From: a virus
Taxonomy: Duplodnaviria > Heunggongvirae > Uroviricota > Caudoviricetes
Virus record (IMG/VR): IMGVR_UViG_3300044814_000107
Coordinates: 67,224-92,052 of that record
Length of the DNA: 24,829 bases
Reading direction: 5' to 3' (one strand)
Shown here in pieces: positions 3,067 through 24,008 of this stretch. The notes under the pieces are model-generated. The model was not told the origin of the DNA and did not search any database. It was given only the letters and a program-made list of their open reading frames with translations. A program made the translations under genes and the position numbers. The first letter of the stretch is position 1. Each line of letters opens with the position of its first letter.

Positions 3067-4874
3067 CGGATCGCCTCCGCGAACTCGTCTGACAGCCGCG
3101 CCCCGCTTTTCTGGACGAGACCGAGTTTCCGCAGGTTGGACAGGATGACCCCGATCGTCGAGGCTGTCGAGGAGTAGCCCGTCCGGTCGGCAAGTTCGGC
3201 GGTCGGCAGCGCGTCCGGGTAGGCGTCTACGAGAGCCAGAAGGACGCGCCGCTCGCCGATTCCCACGCGGGGGTGCTGCAGCCACGCCTCGAGGAGATCG
3301 GGGCCGGTCGGACGCTCGACGGGGCCTCCGACAGCGGCGAGTCCCGCCTCAGTCGGCCGGATCGGCTGACCCGGATGGACTAGACCAGCCTTACGGAGGC
3401 CAGAGAGAATGACTCCGATCGTCGAGGCGCGGGCGGAGTAACCGGCGAGGAAGGCAAGTTCGTTCGACGTTCGCCCGTCAGGGAACTCCGCGAGGACGCC
3501 AAGCACCTTGCGTTCGCCCTTACCGAGCGATGTTTCCGGCTGCTGTCGCGCTGGGGCGACAGGCCGTCGCAGCGAAGCGACAGTCGGCTCGGCGGGACGC
3601 GGGCGTTCACGGACGACCGGCTCACTGGCCGGGACGGCCGTAGCGACCTTCTCCGCGCGCTCGATGAGCGAGGCGAGAGCTTCGAGTTTCTGAGTCGCCG
3701 CCAATACGTCTACGCCGGCCAGTCTCTTGAGAAGACTTCGATCATCGGCGGTCAGCGCCGATACCTCGACCTTGTCGGACGGAACGAGGCCGCGCACCCG
3801 TTCGGCGAAGTCCGGGTCATCGGGGTTCAGCCATCCCTGCTCGCGGAAGTAGGTGCCCCACGCGGGCTCGTCTTCGGTACTTAGGAGCGGACTCGCCCGC
3901 TCTTCCAGAGCTGCCTCGGCGGCGCGTAGACGCTTACGAAGTTCGGCTGGGTCGTTCTCCTTCGCTCGCTCCGCGGTGCGGCGGATCTCGTCCCCGAGCG
4001 CGTCGAGGTCGAGTTCCTGCCGGACGGACGGCTCGGTGCGCTGCTGCCCTGGCTTCGGCGTCTCGTACGAGTCGAACGTCTTGATCCTGCGAAGCGCGAG
4101 CTTCTGCAAGATGCCGCGCAGTGGTGACCAGACCCACGCCGTGCCGGTCGGAAGGCTGTCGAGGGTCCCGATGACACCCTCGCGGTCGTCCTCGTGCTTC
4201 TCGCGGATCCAGTCTTGGACGGCGTCGCGTGCGCGCGGCGAGAGCATCCGCATCACGAGTAGCGTCTCGATCAGGTCGAGGATCGCCTTATTGAGCGCCT
4301 GCGTCCGCTGCGTCGTAAGCACGACGCCGAGGCCGCGCGACCGACCGAGTCCGACGACGTCCTCCATCGCGCCCATCAGCCGAGCTGAATCGCCCTTGAA
4401 GCCGCCGCGGGGCGTTTGCGGCGCGTAGAAGTGCGCCTCGTCCATGACGAGCAGCAGCGTCGACCGCGACCGCGCCTTCCGGTCGTAGAGCCGCTCGAGG
4501 AAGTCAGCGGCAAACTTGATCGCGGCGGATTTCGAGAAGTCGCTCAGGTCGAGTACGAACGAGTGACCCGAGTCCACGACGAGGTTGGCTATCAGGGCGC
4601 CGGCGTGCGACTCGAGCGGGACGTCTCCGTGGGGGCCACCGAGGACGTAGATCGGGAGTCCGGGGCCGTCTCCGTTCGCGTTCGAGCGGAGACCGTGGTA
4701 GACGCCTGTCCGATCGAAGATCACCGACTGGACGCCGAGCGCGAACGCCTCCTCGACGATCACGGCTGATCCCGAGGACTTACCAGCTCCGCGCGTAGCG
4801 ACGATCGCCGTGGCCTCGGTGACGAGCTCGATTGGCAGCGTGAACCCGCGGGCGATCTTCAGACCCGTCGTCAC
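3063..4874 (-). CDS. HerA/FtsK-superfamily (DUF87-like) ATPase with two C-terminal winged-helix repeats
   Basis: True start GTG 4874 (GTGA overlap). Walker A TRGAGKS, Walker B LLLVMDEAH, and GRSRGLGVVLTTQR. Duplicated C-terminal motif ERxVL...GYS...STIGVILSxLRKxGLV. Confidence 0.8.
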   Translation of the reverse strand: MTTGLKIARGFTLPIELVTEATAIVATRGAGKSSGSAVIVEEAFALGVQSVIFDRTGVYHGLRSNANGDGPGLPIYVLGGPHGDVPLESHAGALIANLVVDSGHSFVLDLSDFSKSAAIKFAADFLERLYDRKARSRSTLLLVMDEAHFYAPQTPRGGFKGDSARLMGAMEDVVGLGRSRGLGVVLTTQRTQALNKAILDLIETLLVMRMLSPRARDAVQDWIREKHEDDREGVIGTLDSLPTGTAWVWSPLRGILQKLALRRIKTFDSYETPKPGQQRTEPSVRQELDLDALGDEIRRTAERAKENDPAELRKRLRAAEAALEERASPLLSTEDEPAWGTYFREQGWLNPDDPDFAERVRGLVPSDKVEVSALTADDRSLLKRLAGVDVLAATQKLEALASLIERAEKVATAVPASEPVVRERPRPAEPTVASLRRPVAPARQQPETSLGKGERKVLGVLAEFPDGRTSNELAFLAGYSARASTIGVILSGLRKAGLVHPGQPIRPTEAGLAAVGGPVERPTGPDLLEAWLQHPRVGIGERRVLLALVDAYPDALPTAELADRTGYSSTASTIGVILSNLRKLGLVQKSGARLSDEFAEAIR

Positions 4875-5308
4875 TTCGCGGTGGCTCTCCACGGCTTCTC
4901 GATGTCGCGCTTCGCGAGGTCCGCCGCGGCGGCATAGTCGGGGTTCGCGGCGACGAGCTGGCGGAGGACGGCGCGGTCGACCTTGTACGTGATCTCTTCC
5001 TTGACGACGGCGCGGATCCGATCCTCGGGGCATCCGGCCTCGCGGAGGAGTTCCTCGAGCGTGTGTGCGTCGTACTCGACGGTCGGCCCTCCAGAGAGGG
5101 AGACGTCGCCGGCCGCTGTGTGGAACGTCTTGGTTCCCTCTCTCCGTGACTGCTCGAGCAGGAAGTCGGTTGCGGCGCCGATCTCGTCGTCGATACGGCG
5201 CTTCAAGTCGCGGCCGACGGTGAGGACGCGATGCGCGTTCTCCGTCGTCGCGGGGAGCGCCTCGCCCGAGAGGACGTCTACGAGGTGGCGCTGCTCCGCG
5301 ATCTCCAT
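4871..5308 (-). CDS. Hypothetical protein (145 aa), leaderless start
   Basis: Clean ORF. ATG lies 7 nt after a TACGTT -10 box. Confidence 0.8.
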   Translation of the reverse strand: MEIAEQRHLVDVLSGEALPATTENAHRVLTVGRDLKRRIDDEIGAATDFLLEQSRREGTKTFHTAAGDVSLSGGPTVEYDAHTLEELLREAGCPEDRIRAVVKEEITYKVDRAVLRQLVAANPDYAAAADLAKRDIEKPWRATAK

Positions 5309-5315
5309 AGCTACG

Positions 5316-5337
5316 AACGTAGCGTCGGCGTCGGACG
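5316..5337 (-). promoter_or_regulatory. Putative promoter CGTCCG-N10-TACGTT
   Basis: Copy of the recurring bipartite motif, 7 nt upstream of ATG 5308. Confidence 0.65.
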
Positions 5338-5340
5338 GAC

Positions 5341-5667
5341 TTAGGCGGCGCGCGCGACGTCGAGATCGTCGAGATAGCCACGGAAGATCCCGTCGGCGAG
5401 CTGCACCGAGGAGAGGTTCCGACGTGCAGCCTCGACGCGGAACTTCTTCGCGAGGCTCTCGCTGACCGGGATCTGCAGGCCGACTCCACCGCGCGATCCG
5501 TTGCCGCGCTTGCCGCTTCCGATGAACCTGCAGCCGAGCTTCTCGGCGAGGATCGAGCCGGTGAGGTCGTTCAGGCTCATCTCGCGCTCCTCGGCGACAG
5601 CGACGAGGCGCGTCTTGATCTCGGGGTCGAGCTTGTAGATGTGGAGGTTCACGAGCTTGCCGATCAC
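5341..5667 (-). CDS. Tandem ribbon-helix-helix DNA-binding protein (108 aa)
   Basis: GTG 5667 (GTGA overlap). Two strand-helix-helix units: VNLHIYKLDPEIKTRLVAVAEEREMSLNDLTGSILAEKL and VGLQIPVSESLAKKFRVEAARRNLSSVQLADGIFRGYL. Confidence 0.65.
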   Translation of the reverse strand: MIGKLVNLHIYKLDPEIKTRLVAVAEEREMSLNDLTGSILAEKLGCRFIGSGKRGNGSRGGVGLQIPVSESLAKKFRVEAARRNLSSVQLADGIFRGYLDDLDVARAA

Positions 5668-5951
5668 GCGACGACCGTAGCAGAGGGACCGGATGACGCG
5701 CCAGCGCGGGAGCGGCTCCACGTCGCGACGATCTGTCCGCCGTCGTAGAGGCTGGCCCAGATAGGTGGGTTCGCTAGCTCGGCTTCCGCGGTCGGCTGGT
5801 TCGGGGCGTCTGCCTCTGACCACAGTTCGGCGCGGTACCAAGCGAGCCGCCAGCCGGGATCGTCGCGCCAGTCCTGCTTGATCGCTTCTTCTGATTCCGG
5901 AAGAAACTCGGCCGACTCTCCACGCGCAAGGTCGTCGAAGTCGTCGCTCAT
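5664..5951 (-). CDS. Hypothetical protein (95 aa, acidic/Trp-rich)
   Basis: ATGA overlap with the GroES-like gene stop. Fills the gap exactly. Confidence 0.65.
   Translation of the reverse strand: MSDDFDDLARGESAEFLPESEEAIKQDWRDDPGWRLAWYRAELWSEADAPNQPTAEAELANPPIWASLYDGGQIVATWSRSRAGASSGPSATVVA
5674..5695 (-). promoter_or_regulatory. Putative promoter CATCCG-N10-TACGGT
   Basis: Motif copy, 6 nt upstream of GTG 5667 (leaderless). Confidence 0.6.
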
Positions 5952-6241
5952 GCCGCGTGCGGCTCTTCGTAGGCGAGGATGTCCCTTCGTTCGACGACGA
6001 CGACGTCGAGGATCGTGACGCCGTTCCGGTAGTAGACGACCGTCCCCGGCGCGATGTCCGTACCGCTCTCGGTCGGCTCGTCGCGTAGCCGGTCGACTGC
6101 GAGGACGATCCCGCGGCTGACTCCGCCATCCTGATCGTGCTTATGCGGAAGAACGAGTCCCGAGCCGAGCTCGGTCTCGTCGACGGGCGACTCGGAGAGG
6201 GTGACGCGGCCCCAGTAGGGAAGTACGTTCGCGATCGTCAC
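5948..6241 (-). CDS. GroES/Cpn10-like co-chaperonin
   Basis: GTG 6241 (GTGA overlap), 97 aa. PYWGRVTL...E..GSGLVLP...RGIVLAV...IAPGTVVYY..G.TI...VERRDILA aligns by eye to GroES (PLxDRV, SGIVLP mobile loop, GxVxAVG, ESDILA). Confidence 0.75.
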   Translation of the reverse strand: MTIANVLPYWGRVTLSESPVDETELGSGLVLPHKHDQDGGVSRGIVLAVDRLRDEPTESGTDIAPGTVVYYRNGVTILDVVVVERRDILAYEEPHAA

Positions 6242-7020
6242 CCTGCTCTGCCTCGACGCGAGGCTCGCTCGAGCGTGACCCCGACGCTGCCGTCGTAGAG
6301 GCGGTCCGCGATTCGTCGGCCGAGTAGCTTGTCCGTCTCGCCGAGACGAGCGGCGAGCTGCGGTGACTGGTAGTTCGTCGTCACGATCGTCGGTCTCCGC
6401 GCGTCGTACCGGGCCTGGACGAGTCCGGCGAGCCGCTCGAGCGCGTACTCGGTGGGCCGCTCGGCGCCGAGGTCGTCGAGGGCGAGGACGCGGACGTTGC
6501 AGGCGAACCGATAGAGCGTGGAGCCGTCGTATTCCGTGGGGTCGTTCATCTCCGCTCTCAGGGCGTCGAGCAGGTCGCGCCAGACGATGAGCAGCGCGAC
6601 GTTCGACGGGGTCCCGGCGCGGAACTCCTCGTCGAGTCCGAAGTAACGCTCGATCTCGTCGGCGACGATCTGGCGGACGAGACCCCACGCGAGTCCCGTT
6701 TTCCCTGCCCCGATGTCACCGACGAGCCAGAGGTTCTGCCGTTCTCCGGCGCGGTACCGCTCGAGCCAGCCGCGCGCGAACTGCAGCGCCGCCTGGCCGT
6801 CCTCGGGGTACGTCTCGAGCGTCAGCTCGAGGAGCCGCTCAGTAGCGCCGGCGCGACGCAGCGCCGCGGCTTCCGCCTGCGCCCGGTCGCGTACGTCCTG
6901 CTCTCGCCGCTCGCGCTCGGCGCAGTCCGGGCAGTAGCGGACGGCGATCTTCTGGCCGAGGATCTCGAGGGTAGGAGCGGGGCGGCCGCAGCCGCCAGCG
7001 CAGACTCTTTCGTCGGTCAC
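6238..7020 (-). CDS. DnaC/IstB-like AAA+ helicase loader
   Basis: N-terminal CxxxC...CPDC zinc site, Walker A GDIGAGKT, Walker B LALDDLGAE, and RRPTIVTTN. Immediately downstream of the initiator. Confidence 0.85.
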   Translation of the reverse strand: MTDERVCAGGCGRPAPTLEILGQKIAVRYCPDCAERERREQDVRDRAQAEAAALRRAGATERLLELTLETYPEDGQAALQFARGWLERYRAGERQNLWLVGDIGAGKTGLAWGLVRQIVADEIERYFGLDEEFRAGTPSNVALLIVWRDLLDALRAEMNDPTEYDGSTLYRFACNVRVLALDDLGAERPTEYALERLAGLVQARYDARRPTIVTTNYQSPQLAARLGETDKLLGRRIADRLYDGSVGVTLERASRRGRAG

Positions 7021-7058
7021 AGACCTGCGTAGTACGAGTCGTCTCTTTTCAGATTCAC
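7017..7058 (-). CDS. Putative leaderless 13-aa uORF coupled to the DnaC-like gene
   Basis: GTG 7 nt after a TACGGT -10 box, encoding MNLKRDDSYYAGL. Its TGA overlaps the loader GTG (GTGA). Confidence 0.35.
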   Translation of the reverse strand: MNLKRDDSYYAGL

Positions 7059-7065
7059 CCCTACG

Positions 7066-7087
7066 ACCGTAGCGGGAGCAGCGGACG
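7066..7087 (-). promoter_or_regulatory. Putative promoter CGTCCG-N10-TACGGT
   Basis: Motif copy in the initiator-loader intergenic gap. Confidence 0.65.
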
Positions 7088-7094
7088 ATCTCTT

Positions 7095-8084
7095 CTAGTA
7101 GCCGCCGCCGCCGAACTCGGAGAAGTCGGCCGCGGGCGCGCCTCGCCGTGTACGTGGCATGTTGCCGAGCGGATCGGCGTCCGGTACGAACCTGTCGAGA
7201 CCGCGCTGTAGGAAGTGGAGCAGCGTCCAACGGTGACTCCAGACGTACTCGTCGCTGGCGAGGACCTTCGCGTAGTTCTCGATCGCCGCAACGACCTCGT
7301 CGACGGAGTAGACCTTCAATGCACCGTTGATCGCGCCCTGCGTCTTGTCGGCCTGAAGTACCGCTTCTCGATGGGGCATCAGTGGCGGCGCGAGCCGGGT
7401 CCAGGTCGCGGCGATGAGCGACTTAGGGTGCGGACTCATGCCCTGGTCTTGAAGTTCATCTTGAATAGAAGGAGAGACCGGCAGCTTTTTCCGTTCTGGA
7501 TCGGCAGCTTTTTCCGCTTGGCGCTCCTGACCGGCAGATATTGCCGATCTAGGCGGGACGGTAAGGACGTAGACGTTTCTTAGCCCCCGACCTCGTCTCT
7601 GCGTCTTTACGAGATTCGCGGTGCGCAGTTCCGAGGTAGCCGTCCGCAGCGTCCGCTCCGAGCACTGAGCCATCGCCGCTAGTCCTTCTTGGCCCGGCCA
7701 CTCCTCGTTCGGCCGCCACGAGAGGTGGAGCAGGACGACGAACAGCCGGAAAGCGACGGGGCTGAGCTCGATGTCGAGCAGAATTGCGTTCGGGACCATC
7801 GTGAATCCGCGCTGCCAGAGACCGTCGGACCACCGGACGTTCCGATCATCGACTCGATCCCCCTTCGATGAGTTACAGGGCTGGCAGAGAAGCTGAAGAT
7901 TTTCCAGTACGTCTGGGCCGCGAGGATCGACGTGGTCGAGGGTTAGACCTGCCGTTGCGCCGCAGTGCTGACAGACCGCACCATCGCGAGCGACCAATAG
8001 GTCGAAGAGTTGCCGCTTCCGAGGATTGGTTATCTCGGTGAGCGGTAGCTCTAGGCCCACCGTGTCATCCGACACGGCTGCCAC
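7095..8084 (-). CDS. Phage replication initiator (HTH_36 / lambda O-like) with N-terminal HNH domain
   Basis: N-terminus CQHCG...LTLDHVDPRG...ENLQLLCQPCNSSKG (HNH). Middle GFTMVPNAIL...LSPVAFRLF..L...WPGQEGLA...SERTLRTATSELRTANLV..QRRG..NVY (wHTH). Followed by a DnaC-like loader. Start is GTG 8084 or 8075. Confidence 0.8.
   Translation of the reverse strand: MAAVSDDTVGLELPLTEITNPRKRQLFDLLVARDGAVCQHCGATAGLTLDHVDPRGPDVLENLQLLCQPCNSSKGDRVDDRNVRWSDGLWQRGFTMVPNAILLDIELSPVAFRLFVVLLHLSWRPNEEWPGQEGLAAMAQCSERTLRTATSELRTANLVKTQRRGRGLRNVYVLTVPPRSAISAGQERQAEKAADPERKKLPVSPSIQDELQDQGMSPHPKSLIAATWTRLAPPLMPHREAVLQADKTQGAINGALKVYSVDEVVAAIENYAKVLASDEYVWSHRWTLLHFLQRGLDRFVPDADPLGNMPRTRRGAPAADFSEFGGGGY
7447..7546. 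repeat. Putative replication origin: three 18-bp iterons plus an AT-rich segment inside the initiator gene
   Basis: GACCGGCAGCTTTTTCCG (7476), GATCGGCAGCTTTTTCCG (7499) and GACCGGCAGATATTGCCG (7529), with adjacent AT-rich TCTTGAAGTTCATCTTGAATAGAA (7447-7470). Confidence 0.6.
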
Positions 8085-8112
8085 GCTGCCTTCGTCGTCC
8101 TCACAGCGACAG

Positions 8113-8134
8113 AGAGTAGAGCGGGGGGCGGACG
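8113..8134 (-). promoter_or_regulatory. Putative promoter CGTCCG-N10-TACTCT for the initiator gene
   Basis: Motif copy. It overlaps a GC-rich imperfect hairpin (about 8121-8160) just after the upstream stop. Confidence 0.6.
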
Positions 8135-8165
8135 GACGCAAGTCCCCGTCCCCCGCCTCTGCGAA

Positions 8166-9110
8166 CTAGAGCTGGTAGCGCCTCTCGAGCCGGGAGACGA
8201 TGCGGTCGTAGCCGTTCGCCGGCCGACCGGCGGGCAGGAGGCGAGGTCGAGCGGCTTCGAGCAGTTCCGCCTCCGAGGCCGCGCCGGCGTCGATAGCGAG
8301 CTTCGTCGCGAGCGCGACGTCCGCGTGCGGGATCCATTCGTCCGGGTGGAGGCACATGCCGACCTTCGACTCGCGGGTGACCGGGTCGGCGATGTCGAAG
8401 CCGTTCCCGAGCTCGACGAAGTAGAGCCGGTTGATCCGGCCCCGCACGAAGAAGCCGTGGTGCCGGGCGAGGTCGAGACGCTGCTGCGGCGACAGGCACT
8501 CCCGCAGCAGCTCGAGCGCGCGCTCGTCGGCCAGTTCGTACGGGAGCGGGTCGAGTGGCCGGTCGTTCAGTTCGTCGATAAACGCCGCGTACGCCCGCTG
8601 GAAGCGCTTCCGACCGTTCTTCGTGACGCGGTCGGGCGTGCCATAGCGATCCGCCATCCCGGCCAGCAGTTCGATGTAGAAGCGACCGGCCTCGTCCTGC
8701 TCATCGGCCCTTCGCTGGTAGACCTGCGCGAGTCCGACGCGCCAGACGAGTTCCTCCTGCGAGCCGAGCCGCGTGATCCCGCCGTCCGTCGTGTAAGCGT
8801 TGTAGAGGATCGGCCGCCACGACCAGACCGCGTCGGGATCATCGTGAAGGCAGGTCAGATCGCCGGTCGGAGCTCGGGCGACGGTGCCTGCGTACGAGCG
8901 CGGCGTGAACATCAGCGCCCCGTCCTGCGTCTGCTTGACAACGATCAGATCCATGACGTGCAGAACTCCCGTCGCCGACTCGTACGACGGCATCCCATCA
9001 TGGGGAAGCGCTCGAGCCGGACGACCGCCGCGCGAAACGTGGTGGAGAGGATCGACGGGACCCCAGCCTCCGAGGAGCGCTTCGACGGTCGTCCTGGCTC
9101 TCTTCCTCAC
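8166..9110 (-). CDS. Hypothetical protein (314 aa)
   Basis: GTGA overlap with the upstream gene. Globular C-terminal domain ERALELLRECLSPQQR...CLHPDEWIPHADVALATKLAI. Confidence 0.75.
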   Translation of the reverse strand: MRKRARTTVEALLGGWGPVDPLHHVSRGGRPARALPHDGMPSYESATGVLHVMDLIVVKQTQDGALMFTPRSYAGTVARAPTGDLTCLHDDPDAVWSWRPILYNAYTTDGGITRLGSQEELVWRVGLAQVYQRRADEQDEAGRFYIELLAGMADRYGTPDRVTKNGRKRFQRAYAAFIDELNDRPLDPLPYELADERALELLRECLSPQQRLDLARHHGFFVRGRINRLYFVELGNGFDIADPVTRESKVGMCLHPDEWIPHADVALATKLAIDAGAASEAELLEAARPRLLPAGRPANGYDRIVSRLERRYQL

Positions 9111-9400
9111 CAGCTACCCGCCTCAGTCAGGGCCTTCGGACCGCCAGCCATCGCGCGACCGCGGGTACCCGCTTCCTTGTCCTTCGCCGTCCGGCCTCCC
9201 GGGGCGGCGATGACGCGGCCGAGTTTCTTGTCGAACCTCGAGAGTTTCTTGCCCTTCGCCTCCTCGACGACGTAGAACTCGTAACCCTCGCCCTTCAGCC
9301 GATCCCACTCCTTCTTCGCCGTCTTGACCTGCTCGGCGTCGTCGGGATCCCAGGCGAGCGTCTCGTCGCCTTCGGTCGTCAGGATCTTCAGTTCTCCCAT
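9107..9400 (-). CDS. Hypothetical protein (97 aa)
   Basis: ATG with SD GGAGG. MGELKILTTEGDETLAWDPDD...GYEFY...FDKKLGRVIAAP. Confidence 0.8.
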   Translation of the reverse strand: MGELKILTTEGDETLAWDPDDAEQVKTAKKEWDRLKGEGYEFYVVEEAKGKKLSRFDKKLGRVIAAPGGRTAKDKEAGTRGRAMAGGPKALTEAGSW

Positions 9401-9409
9401 CTCGTCCTC

Positions 9410-9829
9410 CTACTCGAAGTCCGCCGTCGCCCACTCCTCGCGGGAGGGACGCCCCGTTTCGTACGGAGAGAGCCGCCACGGCGGACCGTGGAGGGCGGCT
9501 CCATCGAAGTATCGAGCGAGTACGCCGACGATGCGCTCGCGGCGGCTGTAGCCATCCTCAGCGAGCCAGACAGTCCCCGGCGGGTCGAGCAGCAGGAGAC
9601 CGCTGGGGCCGAGGTACTCGAGCGGGACGCCGAGCTCCTCGAGCGCGTCGACTGCGCCCGCCGTGCGCCGGAACGCGACCGCCCGGTCAGCGCGAGAGAG
9701 GTCGTGGAGGCTCTCGACCCCGTAGACGGCCGCGACGGCCTCTCTGAGCCACTCCTCGGCTTCGTCGCGCCCGGAGAGCAGTTCGGAGAGGCGGACGACG
9801 GCCTCTGTCCACGTAAGCGGGAGAGCCAC
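9410..9829 (-). CDS. Hypothetical protein (139 aa)
   Basis: Fills the operon gap between the AAA ATPase and the next gene. Protein-like composition. Confidence 0.65.
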   Translation of the reverse strand: MALPLTWTEAVVRLSELLSGRDEAEEWLREAVAAVYGVESLHDLSRADRAVAFRRTAGAVDALEELGVPLEYLGPSGLLLLDPPGTVWLAEDGYSRRERIVGVLARYFDGAALHGPPWRLSPYETGRPSREEWATADFE

Positions 9830-9838
9830 ACGCGCGCG

Positions 9839-10834
9839 CTAGTCCTTCGTCGCGCTAGCGGGCTCGGCCGATGTCTCAGCGGGAGCTTCGGCGGCGGGCG
9901 TCTCCGCTGCCGCTGCCTTCTTCTCCTCAATCCGCGCCTTCGACTTCCCGAGCTGCTCGGCGACGTACTCGGGAGTCAGGACACCGCGCGCGAGCCGCTT
10001 CGCCTTCGCGAACGTCTCCGTGATCGACTGCTCGTTGATCCGGGGATTGCCCTCCGAGACGAGGCTCGCGACGAGCTCGGCGACGGCCTCCTCGGACGCA
10101 GCCTCGGGCGGAGCAGGCGGCGGGTTCCCCTTCGAGAGCCACTCGGTCAGGGCCTCCGAAACGGCTGCGGCCTGCTCCTCGTCTCCGAGGTTCGAGACCG
10201 TGTCCGTCAGCGGGTCGACGTGACCGCTCCACGAGACGTCGTGGGTGTCCTGCTCGAACCGGCCGACGAGGTTGAACTCGTACTGCAGGTCGTCGCTCTG
10301 GATCGGGCCGACGCCGAGCATCCGGATTACCTGCCGCTTCCGGCCGTTCTGCTCCTCCTCGCCGACCTCGTACTTCATCTTCGCGCGGCAGGTGGCGATG
10401 ACGTGCGAGTTGACGGCGCCGATCCGCTCGACGAAGGCGTTGTGCTTCGGCCGGACGATCTTCCAGTCGCCGAAGCGGTCGGCCTGCTGAAGGATTCCGC
10501 CCGCGCCAGTCCACTCGTGCGAGACCGAGTCGAGGATGATCGTCCGGCCGGGCCAGCGCTCCTCGGCCATATCGAGCGCGGCGATGAAGGCCTCGGGCGA
10601 GAAGTCGCCGAGGACGCTCATGTCGATCAGCGCGAACTCGTAGCGGTCGGCGTAGAGCTTCGCGCGCCGCTGCTCGGTGTTGATCAGGACGGTCCCGAGC
10701 TTCCCTTCGAAGATACGACTCGCGATCTCCAGTGCGGCCCTGCTCTTGCCGCTTCCGGTCGGCCCCATGAATAGAGCCCTTAGGAGGAGCTGGTCGCGCG
10801 CGGCGACGTCCTCCGTCTCGAACTCGTACGCCAT
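9839..10834 (-). CDS. AAA_24 / Sak4-like recombination ATPase
   Basis: GPTGSGKS, INTE, IILDSVSHEWTGAGG, W..VRPKHNAFV..I...HVIATCRAK, G..PIQ..DLQYEF. Strong SD AAAGGGAGG. Confidence 0.8.
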   Translation of the reverse strand: MAYEFETEDVAARDQLLLRALFMGPTGSGKSRAALEIASRIFEGKLGTVLINTEQRRAKLYADRYEFALIDMSVLGDFSPEAFIAALDMAEERWPGRTIILDSVSHEWTGAGGILQQADRFGDWKIVRPKHNAFVERIGAVNSHVIATCRAKMKYEVGEEEQNGRKRQVIRMLGVGPIQSDDLQYEFNLVGRFEQDTHDVSWSGHVDPLTDTVSNLGDEEQAAAVSEALTEWLSKGNPPPAPPEAASEEAVAELVASLVSEGNPRINEQSITETFAKAKRLARGVLTPEYVAEQLGKSKARIEEKKAAAAETPAAEAPAETSAEPASATKD

Positions 10835-10874
10835 CTCGTCCTCCCTTTCGTCGTAGCTACGGTCGTAGTAAAAC

Positions 10875-11132
10875 CTAAATGGTAGCCGCCGCGCCGGACG
10901 GTCGAAGTACCACGAGTTGGAGCGCGAGTAGATGGGAGCAGCGCCGGTGGAAATCGCGGCTCGCAGGGCAGGTACAGCGCCACTCGTTCGCGCGTGGGTC
11001 GAAGCCGAGGGCGTAGACCTCGCCGTCGGAGAAGCCTCGGCAGCGGGCGACGACGGTCGTCGCGTCGACGCGCTCGACGGTCAGTCTGCCCTCTGCCAGG
11101 ATCTTGTGCGCCTTCTGTTCGGCGGTAGCCAC
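10875..11132 (-). CDS. SWIM zinc-finger protein
   Basis: WRCTCPA...RRCSHLLAL fits CxC-x(n)-CxH. Confidence 0.75.
   Translation of the reverse strand: MATAEQKAHKILAEGRLTVERVDATTVVARCRGFSDGEVYALGFDPRANEWRCTCPASRDFHRRCSHLLALQLVVLRPSGAAATI
10879..10900 (-). promoter_or_regulatory. Putative promoter CGTCCG-N10-TACCAT
   Basis: Motif copy upstream of the AAA ATPase. The CTACGACCGTAG palindrome lies in its leader (10857-10868). Confidence 0.6.
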
Positions 11133-11134
11133 GG

Positions 11135-11419
11135 TCAGTCGACGAGGCTGAGACCGGGCGGGTTCTTCTCGAGTGCTGGGCCGAAGAAGCGCTCGTTCTT
11201 CTCGCTGACGATCTGATAGGCAGCGAGGAGCTTCACCGTCAGTACGCGCAGGTCGGACTTGATCTCTTCCATCTGCGCGAGCAGGTCGGGTTCGATTTCG
11301 ACGACCGTGTCGGCCATCGAGTGAGCTGTCTTGATCGGCTCGGCTATCGCGAGCAGCCGCTCGCCTGTCCGGGCCGTCTCGACGATCCTTTGGATCGTCT
11401 CGTCCGTCGTAAGTGCCAC
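11135..11419 (-). CDS. Hypothetical protein (94 aa, helical)
   Basis: GTG with SD AAGGGAG. First gene of the leftward operon. Confidence 0.7.
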   Translation of the reverse strand: MALTTDETIQRIVETARTGERLLAIAEPIKTAHSMADTVVEIEPDLLAQMEEIKSDLRVLTVKLLAAYQIVSEKNERFFGPALEKNPPGLSLVD

Positions 11420-11447
11420 CTCGTCTCCCTTCGTCGTCAGAGGTACG

Positions 11448-11469
11448 ACCGTAGCGTAAGAGGCGGACG
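11448..11469 (-). promoter_or_regulatory. Putative promoter CGTCCG-N10-TACGGT
   Basis: Motif copy at the start of the recombination/replication operon. Confidence 0.65.
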
Positions 11470-11499
11470 GAAACTACCCGCGCGCTATATCCTCTCCCG

Positions 11500-11668
11500 C
11501 TAGACCGAGCGAGGGGCGCGCGCCGAAAGATGCCCCCGCTGAATCCGACCGCCGGCGCGAGGAAGAGAGGGAGAGGCCAGACGGACCCAACGTTCGCAGA
11601 GGGCGCGCATCCGAACTACAGCCGGTACGGACGGCTGCTGGCGCGCTGACTTCGACATTGGAGGAGCA
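11500..11668 (+). ncRNA. Structured 5' leader resembling a (variant) c-di-AMP/ydaO riboswitch
   Basis: A TATCCT -10 at 11488-11493 gives a leader of about 170 nt. Ordered blocks: CGCTGAATCC (11537), CGAGGAA (11558), GAGGG, TCCGAAC (11610), CAGC and GCTGACTTCG (11645). CGAGG can pair with CTTCG. Downstream gene class fits. Confidence 0.45.
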
Positions 11669-12355
11669 TTGCGATTTCTTCTGACCCTAACGGCCGCCGT
11701 CGCCGCGGCCGCAACTCTGGCGACAGCCCCGATCGACGGGGCATCGAAAGCGGTACCGCAGCAGCACGTTCTTCGTTCGGATGTCTCGCAGGTGAGGAAC
11801 CTGCGTCACTCGATCCCGTGGCACCGAACGATGACGTGGCATTACCAGGACGAGAGAGGCGTTCGCCGGACAGTCTCGGCGTACATGGAGCGACGTACCC
11901 GGAGCGTCCCGTACCTACGCTGGGACAACCAGCTCTGGACGCACCGGCAGATCAGGGCGAAGCACGCCCTCGCCGCGCACCGGCTCCCGCTGACGAACGA
12001 CTGGGCCACCGCGGTCCGGGTCGTGCAGCGGGACTGGCCCGGCACCGCCGACTGGCTTCTCTCGTGCTCCGGAGGCGAGGGCGGCCACGGCATCTGGGTA
12101 TGGAACGGCGGCGCTCCGTACGACTCGCCAAACCACGGCTCGGGTGTGGGCGGCTGGATGCAGTACGCGCCGGGTACGTGGTCGGGGCAGTTCAGCTCCG
12201 CTCTACGCGAGGCCGTGCAACGACACCTAGCGTTGCCGCTACAGAAGACGTCGTCATGGCTGAGTCCCATCGGTCAGGCGTTCGCGGCCGGCTGGTCTCG
12301 CTTCCACCATGCGACATCGGCGTGGGATCCGGGGATCGACCCAGCCTGCGCTTGA
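11669..12355 (+). CDS. Secreted lytic transglycosylase (SLT/Rpf-like) protein
   Basis: TTG start with SD GGAGG. Signal peptide MRFLLTLTAAVAAAATLA. C-terminal CSGGEGG...N...SGVGGWMQYAPGTW...SPIGQAFAAGW...W fits the lysozyme-fold E...G.xQ.xxTW pattern. Confidence 0.7.
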   Translation: MRFLLTLTAAVAAAATLATAPIDGASKAVPQQHVLRSDVSQVRNLRHSIPWHRTMTWHYQDERGVRRTVSAYMERRTRSVPYLRWDNQLWTHRQIRAKHALAAHRLPLTNDWATAVRVVQRDWPGTADWLLSCSGGEGGHGIWVWNGGAPYDSPNHGSGVGGWMQYAPGTWSGQFSSALREAVQRHLALPLQKTSSWLSPIGQAFAAGWSRFHHATSAWDPGIDPACA

Positions 12356-12770
12356 AGAAACGGAGGGGTGCCTTCGGGCGCCCCTCTAACGCTTCTTGCG
12401 CCTCGAGCGCCTCGAGCGCTTTAGCGATCGCGCGGCCGGGCCATAGCATCTTCAACCCGTCCGAGCGGGGCCACGGGAGCAGGTTCCAGAAGAGGATCTC
12501 CAAGCCGACCGCCACGACGAGTCCCTGCCCGAGAAGGTAGGCGACGGCGCAGAGGGCGATGTTGGCGAGGGGGCCACCGGCGGAGGTCAGGACGAGTTGC
12601 CGCCGGGTCAGGAGAAGATCGTCGCGGCCGATGACGACGGCGGGGCCATGCCAAGTGAGGATCGGCCGCCAGTGCAGCCGGAGGGCGACGGCGGCGAGGA
12701 CGTGGCCGATCTCGTGGACGACGAGCGTGACGGCCACGATGAGGGCGAGGATGAGGTCGAGGTCGAGCAT
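12192..12770 (-). CDS. Minimal site-2 protease (peptidase M50) family membrane metalloprotease
   Basis: TM1 with HEIGH (HExxH), AGGPLAN and NLLPWPRSDG (NPDG-type motif). The in-frame stop is unusually far downstream. Confidence 0.75.
   Translation of the reverse strand: MLDLDLILALIVAVTLVVHEIGHVLAAVALRLHWRPILTWHGPAVVIGRDDLLLTRRQLVLTSAGGPLANIALCAVAYLLGQGLVVAVGLEILFWNLLPWPRSDGLKMLWPGRAIAKALEALEAQEALEGRPKAPLRFFKRRLGRSPDPTPMSHGGSETSRPRTPDRWDSAMTTSSVAATLGVVARPRVERS
12363..12386. terminator. Hairpin between convergent genes (probable bidirectional terminator)
   Basis: GAGGGGTGCC-TTCG-GGCGCCCCTC, a 10-bp stem with a UUCG loop. It is followed by CGTTTCTT on the minus strand. Confidence 0.7.
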
Positions 12771-12816
12771 CGTGACCCGACGATCTTCTGCCGCGACTCG
12801 GACGACGGGCTGCATA

Positions 12817-12839
12817 CGTCCGACCCTCGCCTCTATTCT
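12817..12839 (+). promoter_or_regulatory. Putative promoter CGTCCG-N11-TATTCT
   Basis: Motif copy with a spacer 1 nt longer. GTG follows 7 nt later at 12847. Confidence 0.45.
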
Positions 12840-12846
12840 GTGGTGC

Positions 12847-13344
12847 GTGGCGCGTAACACCACCGTCGCCCTGATTCGACTCTGCGACATCTGCGGCGGA
12901 CCAGCCGACGGTCACGTTCATCGAGACGGCTGTCTCGTTACGTCGGCGCCGTTCACGGAGACGCTTCGAGCCTTCGTCGTTCGCTGGAGCAAAGATCGTC
13001 CGCAGCCGGGCGCCCAGTTCGGGGTGACTACCGAGGAGCCGCCGATCAGGGCGCTCGCTTGGCTCGCGGCGGAGGTTTCGCGGCACTCCCCCTACATCAC
13101 GGAAGCGACACTGAAGGGTCTGCTCGAGCGTGGCGACCGCGCGAAGGGGCTGATCGAACTCAGGGTCGCCGACGCGCTCGCGGTCGCGCTCGACCGGCCA
13201 GACGTCTTCTACGATCCGCGCATCGTCGTCTACCGGAACCCGCAGGCGTCGCGCGACGCGGAGTGTCTCGACGAGCTCGGCCAGCCGCTCCGTGTGCCGC
13301 CGGGGGCGTGCTGCTCCGGCAGTTCGCGCCTGCTCGCCGCCTAG
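12847..13344 (+). CDS. Hypothetical protein (165 aa), leaderless
   Basis: 3' part of ORF 12559..13344. CDICGG..GH.H...C near the N-terminus; possible HTH-like segment TLKGLLERG...RVADALAVAL. Confidence 0.6.
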   Translation: MARNTTVALIRLCDICGGPADGHVHRDGCLVTSAPFTETLRAFVVRWSKDRPQPGAQFGVTTEEPPIRALAWLAAEVSRHSPYITEATLKGLLERGDRAKGLIELRVADALAVALDRPDVFYDPRIVVYRNPQASRDAECLDELGQPLRVPPGACCSGSSRLLAA

Positions 13345-23389: not shown

Positions 23390-23411
23390 CGTCCGAGACG
23401 GACGCGAAAAT
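23390..23411 (+). promoter_or_regulatory. Putative promoter CGTCCG-N8-GC-GAAAAT for the antisense HNH
   Basis: Motif copy with exact 10-nt spacing and a degenerate -10. GTG follows 6 nt later at 23418. Confidence 0.4.
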
Positions 23412-23417
23412 AGGGAC

Positions 23418-24008
23418 GTGCCGCAGGACATCCCTCTCGGTTTCTGCCAGTGCGGCTGCGGGCAGAGAACCACCGTCCCCACGAAATCGAACCGCCGCGA
23501 GGGACGAATCCGCGGCGTACCGATGCGGTACATCTCGGGCCACAACGCACAAGGCAGAACCGCCGAGCCGCTGGAGACCCGTTACGAGCTGCGCGACTGC
23601 GGCTACGAGACGCCCTGCTGGGTCTGGCTGCGAAGCCGAAGCGGAAAGGGCTATGGGCAGATATGGGACCCCGTACGTCGGCGACTCGTACAGGCGAGCC
23701 GCTTCTACTACGAGACCTTCGTCGGACCCCTCGCCGACGATCTCCAGATCGACCATCTCTGCCGGAACCCGCCCTGCGTCAACCCACAGCACCTCGAGCC
23801 TGTGACGCAGCACGTCAACCAGCAGCGCGGCCTGAACGCCAAACTCACCCGAGCGGACGCGGACGAGATTCGTCGCCGAGGACAGACAGGCGTGGAACAG
23901 CGCCGCCAAGGGCACCAGTCCGGAGAGAGCCTGAACGCCCTCGCTCGCGAGTTCGGCGTGAGCCTGCCTGTGGTATCTGGGATCGTTCGCGGTCATCTCT
24001 GGCCCTAG
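23418..24008 (+). CDS. HNH endonuclease (N-terminal CxCGCG, HNH_3, C-terminal HTH), antisense in the tail operon
   Basis: CQCGCG...CWVW...GYG...DHLCRNPPCVNPQHLEPVTQHVN...AKLT...LAREFGVS...VSGIVRG. Confidence 0.9.
   Translation: MPQDIPLGFCQCGCGQRTTVPTKSNRREGRIRGVPMRYISGHNAQGRTAEPLETRYELRDCGYETPCWVWLRSRSGKGYGQIWDPVRRRLVQASRFYYETFVGPLADDLQIDHLCRNPPCVNPQHLEPVTQHVNQQRGLNAKLTRADADEIRRRGQTGVEQRRQGHQSGESLNALAREFGVSLPVVSGIVRGHLWP

Follow-up and report, generated by a model that had tools for sequence, protein, structure and literature searches.

Which protein reads a short promoter-like motif, CRTCCG-N10-TAnnnT, that recurs upstream of the replication and recombination genes of an uncultured tailed soil phage? 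The motif was noticed in a 24,829-nucleotide stretch of DNA (hereafter the window) that forms the last 24.8 kb of the 92,052-bp IMG/VR record IMGVR_UViG_3300044814_000107. Coordinates are window positions unless they are marked as genome positions. An initial annotation, made from the sequence without database searches, observed that the CRTCCG box lies too close to the transcription start to be a -35 element, and proposed that a phage-specific activator or a system for appropriating the host sigma factor defines a temporal group of phage genes. Another answer is favored by the evidence presented here. The sites are probably promoters of the PafBC type (also known by their -26 element, as RecA-NDp, or through sigma adaptation), which are carried by a lytic, uncultured actinobacterial phage and would be read by an activator belonging to the host.

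A motif confined to gene starts

Six minus-strand copies had been described in the window (5316-5337, 5674-5695, 7066-7087, 8113-8134, 10879-10900 and 11448-11469), and both their coordinates and their -10 boxes proved correct. This number compares with 0.21 copies expected by chance, as judged from 100 shuffles of the sequence, none of which contained more than two. Inspection of the sequence also bore out the observation that GC directly precedes the -10 hexamer in five of the six copies, and that two weaker copies are present on the plus strand, at 12817-12839 (N11, TATTCT) and 23390-23411 (GAAAAT).

The pattern extends well beyond the window. The phage record has terminal repeats, a G+C content of 67%, and transcription almost entirely from the minus strand. 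Across these 92 kb the exact motif occurs 12 times, always on the minus strand, whereas a first-order Markov simulation predicts 0.83 occurrences. A position-matrix scan set 14 sites apart from the background (scores 14.8 to 39.4), and every site is located on the gene strand and at the start of a gene. These sites are confined to the region for replication, recombination and DNA modification and to a miscellaneous block (genome 78.7-32.5 kb), and the same genome-wide scan revealed none in the portal, head or tail modules.

Alignment of the 14 matrix sites yields a consensus, cCGTCCG-N8-GC-TACGGT-CGTAGC, that is longer than the motif first described and takes in a near-palindrome, CTAC-N4-GTAG. 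Every site has an N10 spacer and the same three bases at -12 (T), -11 (A) and -7 (T). An ATG or GTG codon lies 6-8 nt past the hexamer in nine of the 14. The leaderless geometry attributed to the window copies was recovered at 5316, 5674, 7066, 12817 and 23390, where the gap is 6-7 nt. The gap is 8 nt at 8113, and the promoters at 10879 and 11448 have leaders of about 30 nt with ribosome-binding sites of the GGAGG type. For the helicase gene, a leaderless GTG start gives a protein of 531 amino acids, and this choice of start is supported by the lengths of its homologs (527-530 amino acids).

The reported absence of a TTGACA-like -35 element is equally clear, given that information content stays below 0.4 bit from -57 to -30 and that the best TTGACA-like hexamers upstream of the sites carry two to five mismatches. 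Since the conserved box occupies positions -28 to -23, a factor other than sigma region 4 has to recognize it.

Motifs of this kind could in principle serve purposes other than transcription. They resemble cluster A stoperators and cluster K start-associated sequences in being short, repeated many times, set in one orientation and located at gene starts; those elements are repressor- or translation-associated sites and are not known to have the -26 box/-10 architecture. It also seems very unlikely that the repeats are boundaries of mobile cassettes, targets of homing endonucleases or recombination, or sites of DNA modification. HNH endonucleases, inteins and DNA methyltransferases abound in this genome, and the repeats are intergenic, as such functions would allow, but the flanking genes are unrelated, the orientation strictly follows that of each gene, and the invariant TA...T sits at the distance of a -10 box from start codons. 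Moreover, housekeeping repair genes that hosts carry in single copy have this bipartite motif as well (see below).

The layout is that of PafBC-dependent promoters

An architecture with these features is already known in actinobacteria. The in vivo consensus for PafBC is tGTCgg(N10)tA(N3)T, of which the 5' part, at -28 to -23, has been named the "-26 element" (PMC8635444). Its GTC triplet is strictly conserved and is read by residues R46 and R50 of PafB, and the promoters have a SigA-type -10 box and no -35 (PMC8635444). In the mechanism termed "sigma adaptation," PafBC inserts between sigma region 4 and the DNA, an arrangement that the authors compare with the action of AsiA and MotA in phage T4 (PMC8635444). 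The binding of single-stranded DNA (ssDNA) was later shown to activate PafBC (PMC11804915).

The 22-nt layout of the phage motif is the layout of a PafBC-dependent promoter (RecA-NDp, or recA P1), with GTC in register at 12 of the 14 phage sites. Like PafBC-dependent promoters (PMC8635444, PMC6789036), the phage sites combine a GTC box at -28 to -23, a 10-nt spacer, a SigA-type TAnnnT and the lack of a -35 element, and their leaders are frequently short or absent. They are unlike those promoters in having the box dialect CGTCCG rather than tGTCgg, in being borne by a phage in about 14 copies before genes for replication and DNA metabolism, in that their dependence on PafBC is presumed, and in that most copies are overlaid by a palindrome specific to the phage lineage.

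The same box precedes DNA-damage genes in Thermoleophilia

If a host protein reads the box, then the box should be found in host genomes as well. Upstream regions of recA were surveyed in 32 Actinomycetota genomes, and NGTCNN-N10-TAnnnT was present in 25 of them. No conclusion drawn here depends on the genomes flagged as unpublished (G003, G050 and G090), which enter only into a tally of RecA. In this phylum-wide sample the boxes are mostly TGTCAC, TGTCAG or TGTCGG, and the lone CGTCCG case is a Solirubrobacterales genome, G001, which had been found through a helicase-profile scan of genome contigs and was used as the sampling center. The scan itself was rejected as an indicator of the host, as its matches fall in many phyla and are not diagnostic, and five loci from it that were examined contain no motif.

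Within the class to which G001 belongs, Thermoleophilia, the recA box is (C/T)GTCCG wherever any box was found: at N10, CGTCCG occurs seven times and TGTCCG three times, and further copies occur at N11. Four genomes were searched for the exact phage pattern, and each has it no more than about 100 nt from recA; G001 has it before uvrB, lexA and a gene for a uvrD-like helicase as well. The box is thus not phage-specific. In three G001 promoters, those of lexA (L168), a gene for a 79-amino-acid protein (L173) and the uvrD-like gene (L176), a LexA box, GAAC-N4-GTTC, follows directly after the -10, and these promoters appear to be under dual control of a PafBC-type activator and LexA. Judged from these comparisons of sequence, CGTCCG-N10-TAnnnT is the DNA-damage promoter dialect of Thermoleophilia, and the phage uses that dialect unchanged. 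Because the dialect is found at the DNA-damage genes of this class, it points to a phage host in Thermoleophilia. The motif is far denser in the phage (about 130 per Mb) than in G001 (about 5 per Mb).

A candidate reader is encoded by G001 in the form of a single fused double-WYL protein of 740 amino acids (L160:956-3178, minus strand). Its best solved relatives are the PafB and PafC subunits of the RNA polymerase-PafBC complex 7p5x and the naturally fused PafBC 6sj9. Host PafBC is the likely reader of the phage promoters because the same box is present at Thermoleophilia damage genes, because G001 has this PafBC-like protein, and because no phage reader was detected, as described in the following section.

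Two further observations concern the affiliation of the phage. Its capsid protein matches actinobacteriophages only. Separately, an 82-kb contig binned in a Solirubrobacterales metagenome-assembled genome (CAVYFE010000001.1, L020) is phage-like in size, and the helicase it encodes shares 42% identity with that of the phage; no box motif was found in the 13.5 kb of it that was examined. This contig may be a phage contig that was binned with its host.

Search for a phage-encoded reader

The arrangement invites comparison with the middle promoters of phage T4. These, too, pair a host-type -10 with an activator box instead of a -35 element, and they mark out a set of phage genes by the time of its expression. 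The factors that act at T4 middle promoters are phage-encoded, and the MotA box is centered near -30. The present promoters are unlike this system in that no phage factor was found and in that their box is that of host damage genes. Searches of the phage genome gave no match to WYL, HTH_11 or sigma-70 region 2, and no recognizable counterpart of the T4-type pair of an activator and a co-activator that remodels sigma region 4, with small unannotated proteins remaining as places where one could lie. A sub-threshold helix-turn-helix resembling sigma-70 region 4 (15.4 bits) was seen at genome 33063-33164 on the minus strand, within a 73-amino-acid open frame between called genes, which could encode a small regulator.

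The possibility that a phage-encoded activator and sigma-appropriation pair similar to MotA and AsiA reads CGTCCG and sets a phage-specific middle regulon is therefore unlikely. It would draw some support from the many small early proteins without a recognizable family, from the weak region-4-like helix-turn-helix, and from the sharpness of the phage box at three C positions relative to the published host consensus. However, an identical box with identical spacing before cellular recA, lexA, uvrB and uvrD cannot depend on a phage factor, the phage lacks detectable WYL, HTH_11 and sigma region 2 domains, and the box is kept in mosaic relatives that have few early genes in common with this phage. 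The initial proposal consequently divides into two parts. The existence of an activator-dependent promoter class, with a TAnnnT -10, no -35 and a box at -28 to -23, stands, whereas the assignment of a phage-specific factor does not. The two candidates that had been suggested for that role, a protein with tandem ribbon-helix-helix domains and a 145-amino-acid "LmbU-like" protein, are likewise unsupported: nothing ties either one to the CGTCCG box, and the latter has no significant Pfam hit.

The relatives just mentioned were recovered as six contigs from other soil sequencing runs, with helicases 52-70% identical to that of the phage and a G+C content of 67-73%. Together they carry 12 copies of [CT]GTCC[GT]-N10/11-TAnnnT, compared with 1.4 expected. 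All 12 share the strand of the genes; six of them have a called start 8-25 nt away, and one is upstream of the gene orthologous to the Band-7 gene. Few other early genes are common to these phages and the phage studied here, and since the box is kept nonetheless, a reader from the host is more likely than one that is phage-encoded and conserved. Other routes to relatives were less productive. Scanning IMG/VR with one protein at a time, either the helicase or the AAA_24 protein, turned up none, window positions 5000-12000 gave no megablast match to GenBank phages, and an exact IMG/VR scan for CGTCCG-N8-GCTACGGTCGTAG found nothing beyond this record. Among public sequencing runs, the stretch is present in one soil-metagenome DNA run, which may be the one it came from, and no RNA run is listed.

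An extremely improbable alternative is that an RNA polymerase encoded by the phage uses the motif as its promoter. The long conserved stretch from -29 to -1 is reminiscent of promoters for single-subunit polymerases, but the motif consists of two parts joined by a variable spacer, its -10 is of the sigma type, and no large protein examined resembles an RNA polymerase. No match to a T7-type RNA polymerase was found in the phage genome, which is a weak negative as the control genomes were silent in this search.

A palindrome overlies most of the promoters

The second element of the consensus, CTAC-N4-GTAG, occurs 13 times in the phage genome, compared with 0.47 expected, and is always intergenic. 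It mostly overlaps the -10 and the discriminator. Copies that depart from this placement fall on the box (genome 42328), immediately before it (genome 59498) and 10 nt past the -10 (window 10857), and the palindrome is also present at promoter-like sites without the box (genome 34562 and 51719). The second of these boxless sites (genome 51719-51730, minus strand) precedes a gene for a 163-amino-acid protein and the terminase gene; it reads TACCCT-CGTAG, has no -26 box, and is followed by an ATG 10 nt downstream. It may represent a different, perhaps late, promoter class.

In the related phages, TATCG(C/T)GATA takes the place of the palindrome, and its offset from the box varies; TATCGCGATA is the form in these relatives that corresponds to CTACGGTCGTAG. 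Copies lie at or beside promoters at L014:1482, L014:7815, L181:8911, L181:11551, L182:1262, L182:7573 and L183:7838, several of them without a CGTCCG box. Because the relatives carry this different sequence, the palindrome is probably an operator for a dimeric regulator that is phage-encoded and specific to each lineage. The protein with tandem ribbon-helix-helix domains, encoded right after the 5674 promoter, is at most a candidate for binding it, and no orthologue of this protein was detectable on the fragmentary contigs of the relatives. Host LexA was considered as the binder and judged unlikely, as the LexA boxes of the candidate host class are GAAC-N4-GTTC rather than CTAC-N4-GTAG.

The combination recalls dual promoters under PafBC and LexA in hosts, such as P1/P2 of mycobacterial recA and those in G001, where a palindrome whose 4-bp arms flank a 4-bp spacer likewise overlaps the -26 box and -10 or comes directly after them. 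It is unlike them in the identity of the palindrome, which is the LexA box GAAC-N4-GTTC in hosts and CTAC-N4-GTAG in the phage.

The palindrome also suggests a simpler reading, in which these would be housekeeping, -10-only leaderless promoters regulated through the palindrome, with CGTCCG either incidental or one piece of a more extended binding site for a regulator, rather than an activator box. TAnnnT alone is often enough for actinobacterial promoters, a few palindrome sites have no box (genome 34572 and 51729), and at genome 42320 the box falls within the CTAC-N4-GTAG palindrome. Nevertheless, we regard this reading as quite unlikely. The box is held at a fixed N10/N11 in relatives whose palindrome differs and shifts register, host damage genes have the same box, and the two elements are separable, as seen at 8113, where there is only a box, and at 10857, where the palindrome is downstream of the promoter.

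How host PafBC might drive phage replication genes

Neither an integrase nor a serine recombinase was found in the phage genome. For this reason the phage is probably lytic, and an interpretation based on prophage induction was dropped. Under PafBC control of the kind proposed here, the TAnnnT -10 would be read by the host housekeeping RNA polymerase with SigA, and the host WYL-domain activator PafBC, once switched on by ssDNA, would make up for the missing -35 element by sitting between sigma region 4 and the DNA and recognizing GTC within the CGTCCG box (-28 to -23). Transcription would start 6-8 nt past the hexamer, often at the start codon itself, to give a leaderless mRNA. About 14 uses of this promoter, solely before early, replication, recombination and DNA-modification operons, would cause those operons to fire once entry or replication of phage DNA yields ssDNA. 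A phage-encoded dimeric regulator bound to the CTAC-N4-GTAG operator could then gate the promoters, in a manner that mirrors the LexA box placed after host -26/-10 elements.

Several points weigh against PafBC as the reader and must be taken into account. The GTC triplet is broken in two members of the promoter family, as ATC (CATCCG, window 5674) and as GGC (CGGCCG, genome 56554), and one member has no box (genome 34572). Conservation of the C residues at -29, -28 and -24 is much stronger in the phage sites than in the consensus from mycobacteria. A phmmer alignment with M. smegmatis PafB indicates that the corresponding head of the G001 protein keeps R46 and has Ala at R50, one of the arginines that read GTC. 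In G001 the pattern is not more frequent genome-wide than a reversed control (21 compared with 19), so the link to the host rests on which genes the pattern precedes. We infer the PafBC dependence of the Thermoleophilia recA promoters by homology, and the host solely from the promoter dialect. Finally, a phage protein that has escaped recognition could possibly read the same box. The phmmer alignment also places extra Arg residues at positions 47 and 52 of the PafB-like head, and the arginine changes in this head may be related to the CGTCCG dialect.

If PafBC does control these promoters, then actinobacterial phages can take over a host stress activator instead of encoding a sigma factor, a MotA-like activator or an RNA polymerase, and phage replication genes would be switched on once ssDNA appears. 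The PafBC-type promoter would also be extended to Thermoleophilia, with a distinct box dialect, and an uncultured phage family would acquire a testable host prediction. No description of PafBC-type phage promoters was found in the literature searched, where PafBC is discussed with regard to phage resistance, and nothing relevant was found in work on phiC31 early promoters and leaderless transcripts. Because the promoter class is already known, the finding provides a useful new example rather than a new mechanism.

A broader proposal can be put forward more tentatively, as one that is plausible but short of probable. There may be a family of lytic soil phages of Thermoleophilia that, through sigma adaptation, runs its whole early and replication program on host PafBC, the sensor of ssDNA, with no activating factor of its own, and in which each lineage has placed its own palindromic operator over the -10, copying the PafBC-plus-LexA design of the host. 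In that case, the box dialect (CGTCCG as opposed to TGTCAC, TGTCAG or TGTCGG) could serve to predict the host class of uncultured actinophages.

Individual promoters and neighboring genes

The promoters of the window and the genes that follow them are given here, beginning with those on the minus strand in the order of transcription.

11448-11469, minus strand: promoter; box CGTCCG at 11469-11464, N10, -10 TACGGT at 11453-11448, then CGTAC; matrix score 36.9
11135-11419, minus strand: gene for a 94-amino-acid protein; GTG start after the leader of about 30 nt, with GGGAG, from the 11448 promoter
10879-10900, minus strand: promoter; box CGTCCG, N10, -10 TACCAT; leader with GGGAGG before the ATG
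10857-10868: palindrome CTACGGTCGTAG, candidate operator; lies 10 nt past the -10 (TACCAT) of the promoter at 10879
9839-10834, minus strand: AAA_24 (RecA-like ATPase) gene, downstream of the 10879 promoter
8113-8134, minus strand: promoter; box CGTCCG, N10, -10 TACTCT, without the palindrome; matrix score 14.8, the weakest
7095-8075, minus strand: HNH and HTH_36 gene, downstream of the 8113 promoter
7056-7087, minus strand: promoter; box CGTCCG, N10, -10 TACGGT within palindrome CTACGGTCGTAG (7061-7072); GTG 7 nt past the hexamer
7017-7058, minus strand: leaderless upstream open reading frame of 13 codons; its TGA stop and the GTG start (7020) of the IstB/DnaC-like ATPase gene share bases (GTGA overlap)
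6238-7020, minus strand: IstB/DnaC-like ATPase gene (Pfam); the protein begins VTDERV
5665-5695, minus strand: promoter; degenerate box CATCCG (ATC for GTC), N10, -10 TACGGT; GTG 5667 follows 6 nt later
5341-5667, minus strand: gene for a 108-amino-acid protein with two weak ribbon-helix-helix hits; begins at GTG 5667
5306-5337, minus strand: promoter; box CGTCCG, N10, -10 TACGTT within palindrome CTACGTTCGTAG (5311-5322); best matrix score, 39.4
4871-5308, minus strand: gene for the 145-amino-acid protein; ATG 5308 lies 7 nt past the hexamer, and a HerA/FtsK-like ATPase gene comes next
12817-12849, plus strand: weaker copy; box CGTCCG, N11, TATTCT; GTG 12847 after 7 nt, in frame with an open reading frame ending at 13344
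23390-23420, plus strand: weak copy; box CGTCCG, N10, GAAAAT; GTG 23418 after 6 nt
23418-24008, plus strand: HNH_3 endonuclease gene, starting at the GTG after the 23390 copy

The overlap of the 13-codon reading frame with the start of the IstB/DnaC-like ATPase gene suggests that translation of the latter is coupled to the leaderless mini-frame. The plus-strand copy at 12817 diverges from a minus-strand gene at 12192-12815. The box of the 23390 copy forms one arm of a perfect hairpin, CGTCCGagaCGGACG (23390-23404, plus strand), located between convergent and divergent genes, and this hairpin may also be a terminator. Outside the window, the large terminase (868 amino acids; genome 48619-51225, minus strand) has LAGLIDADG and Hint-like hits and is probably interrupted by an intein.

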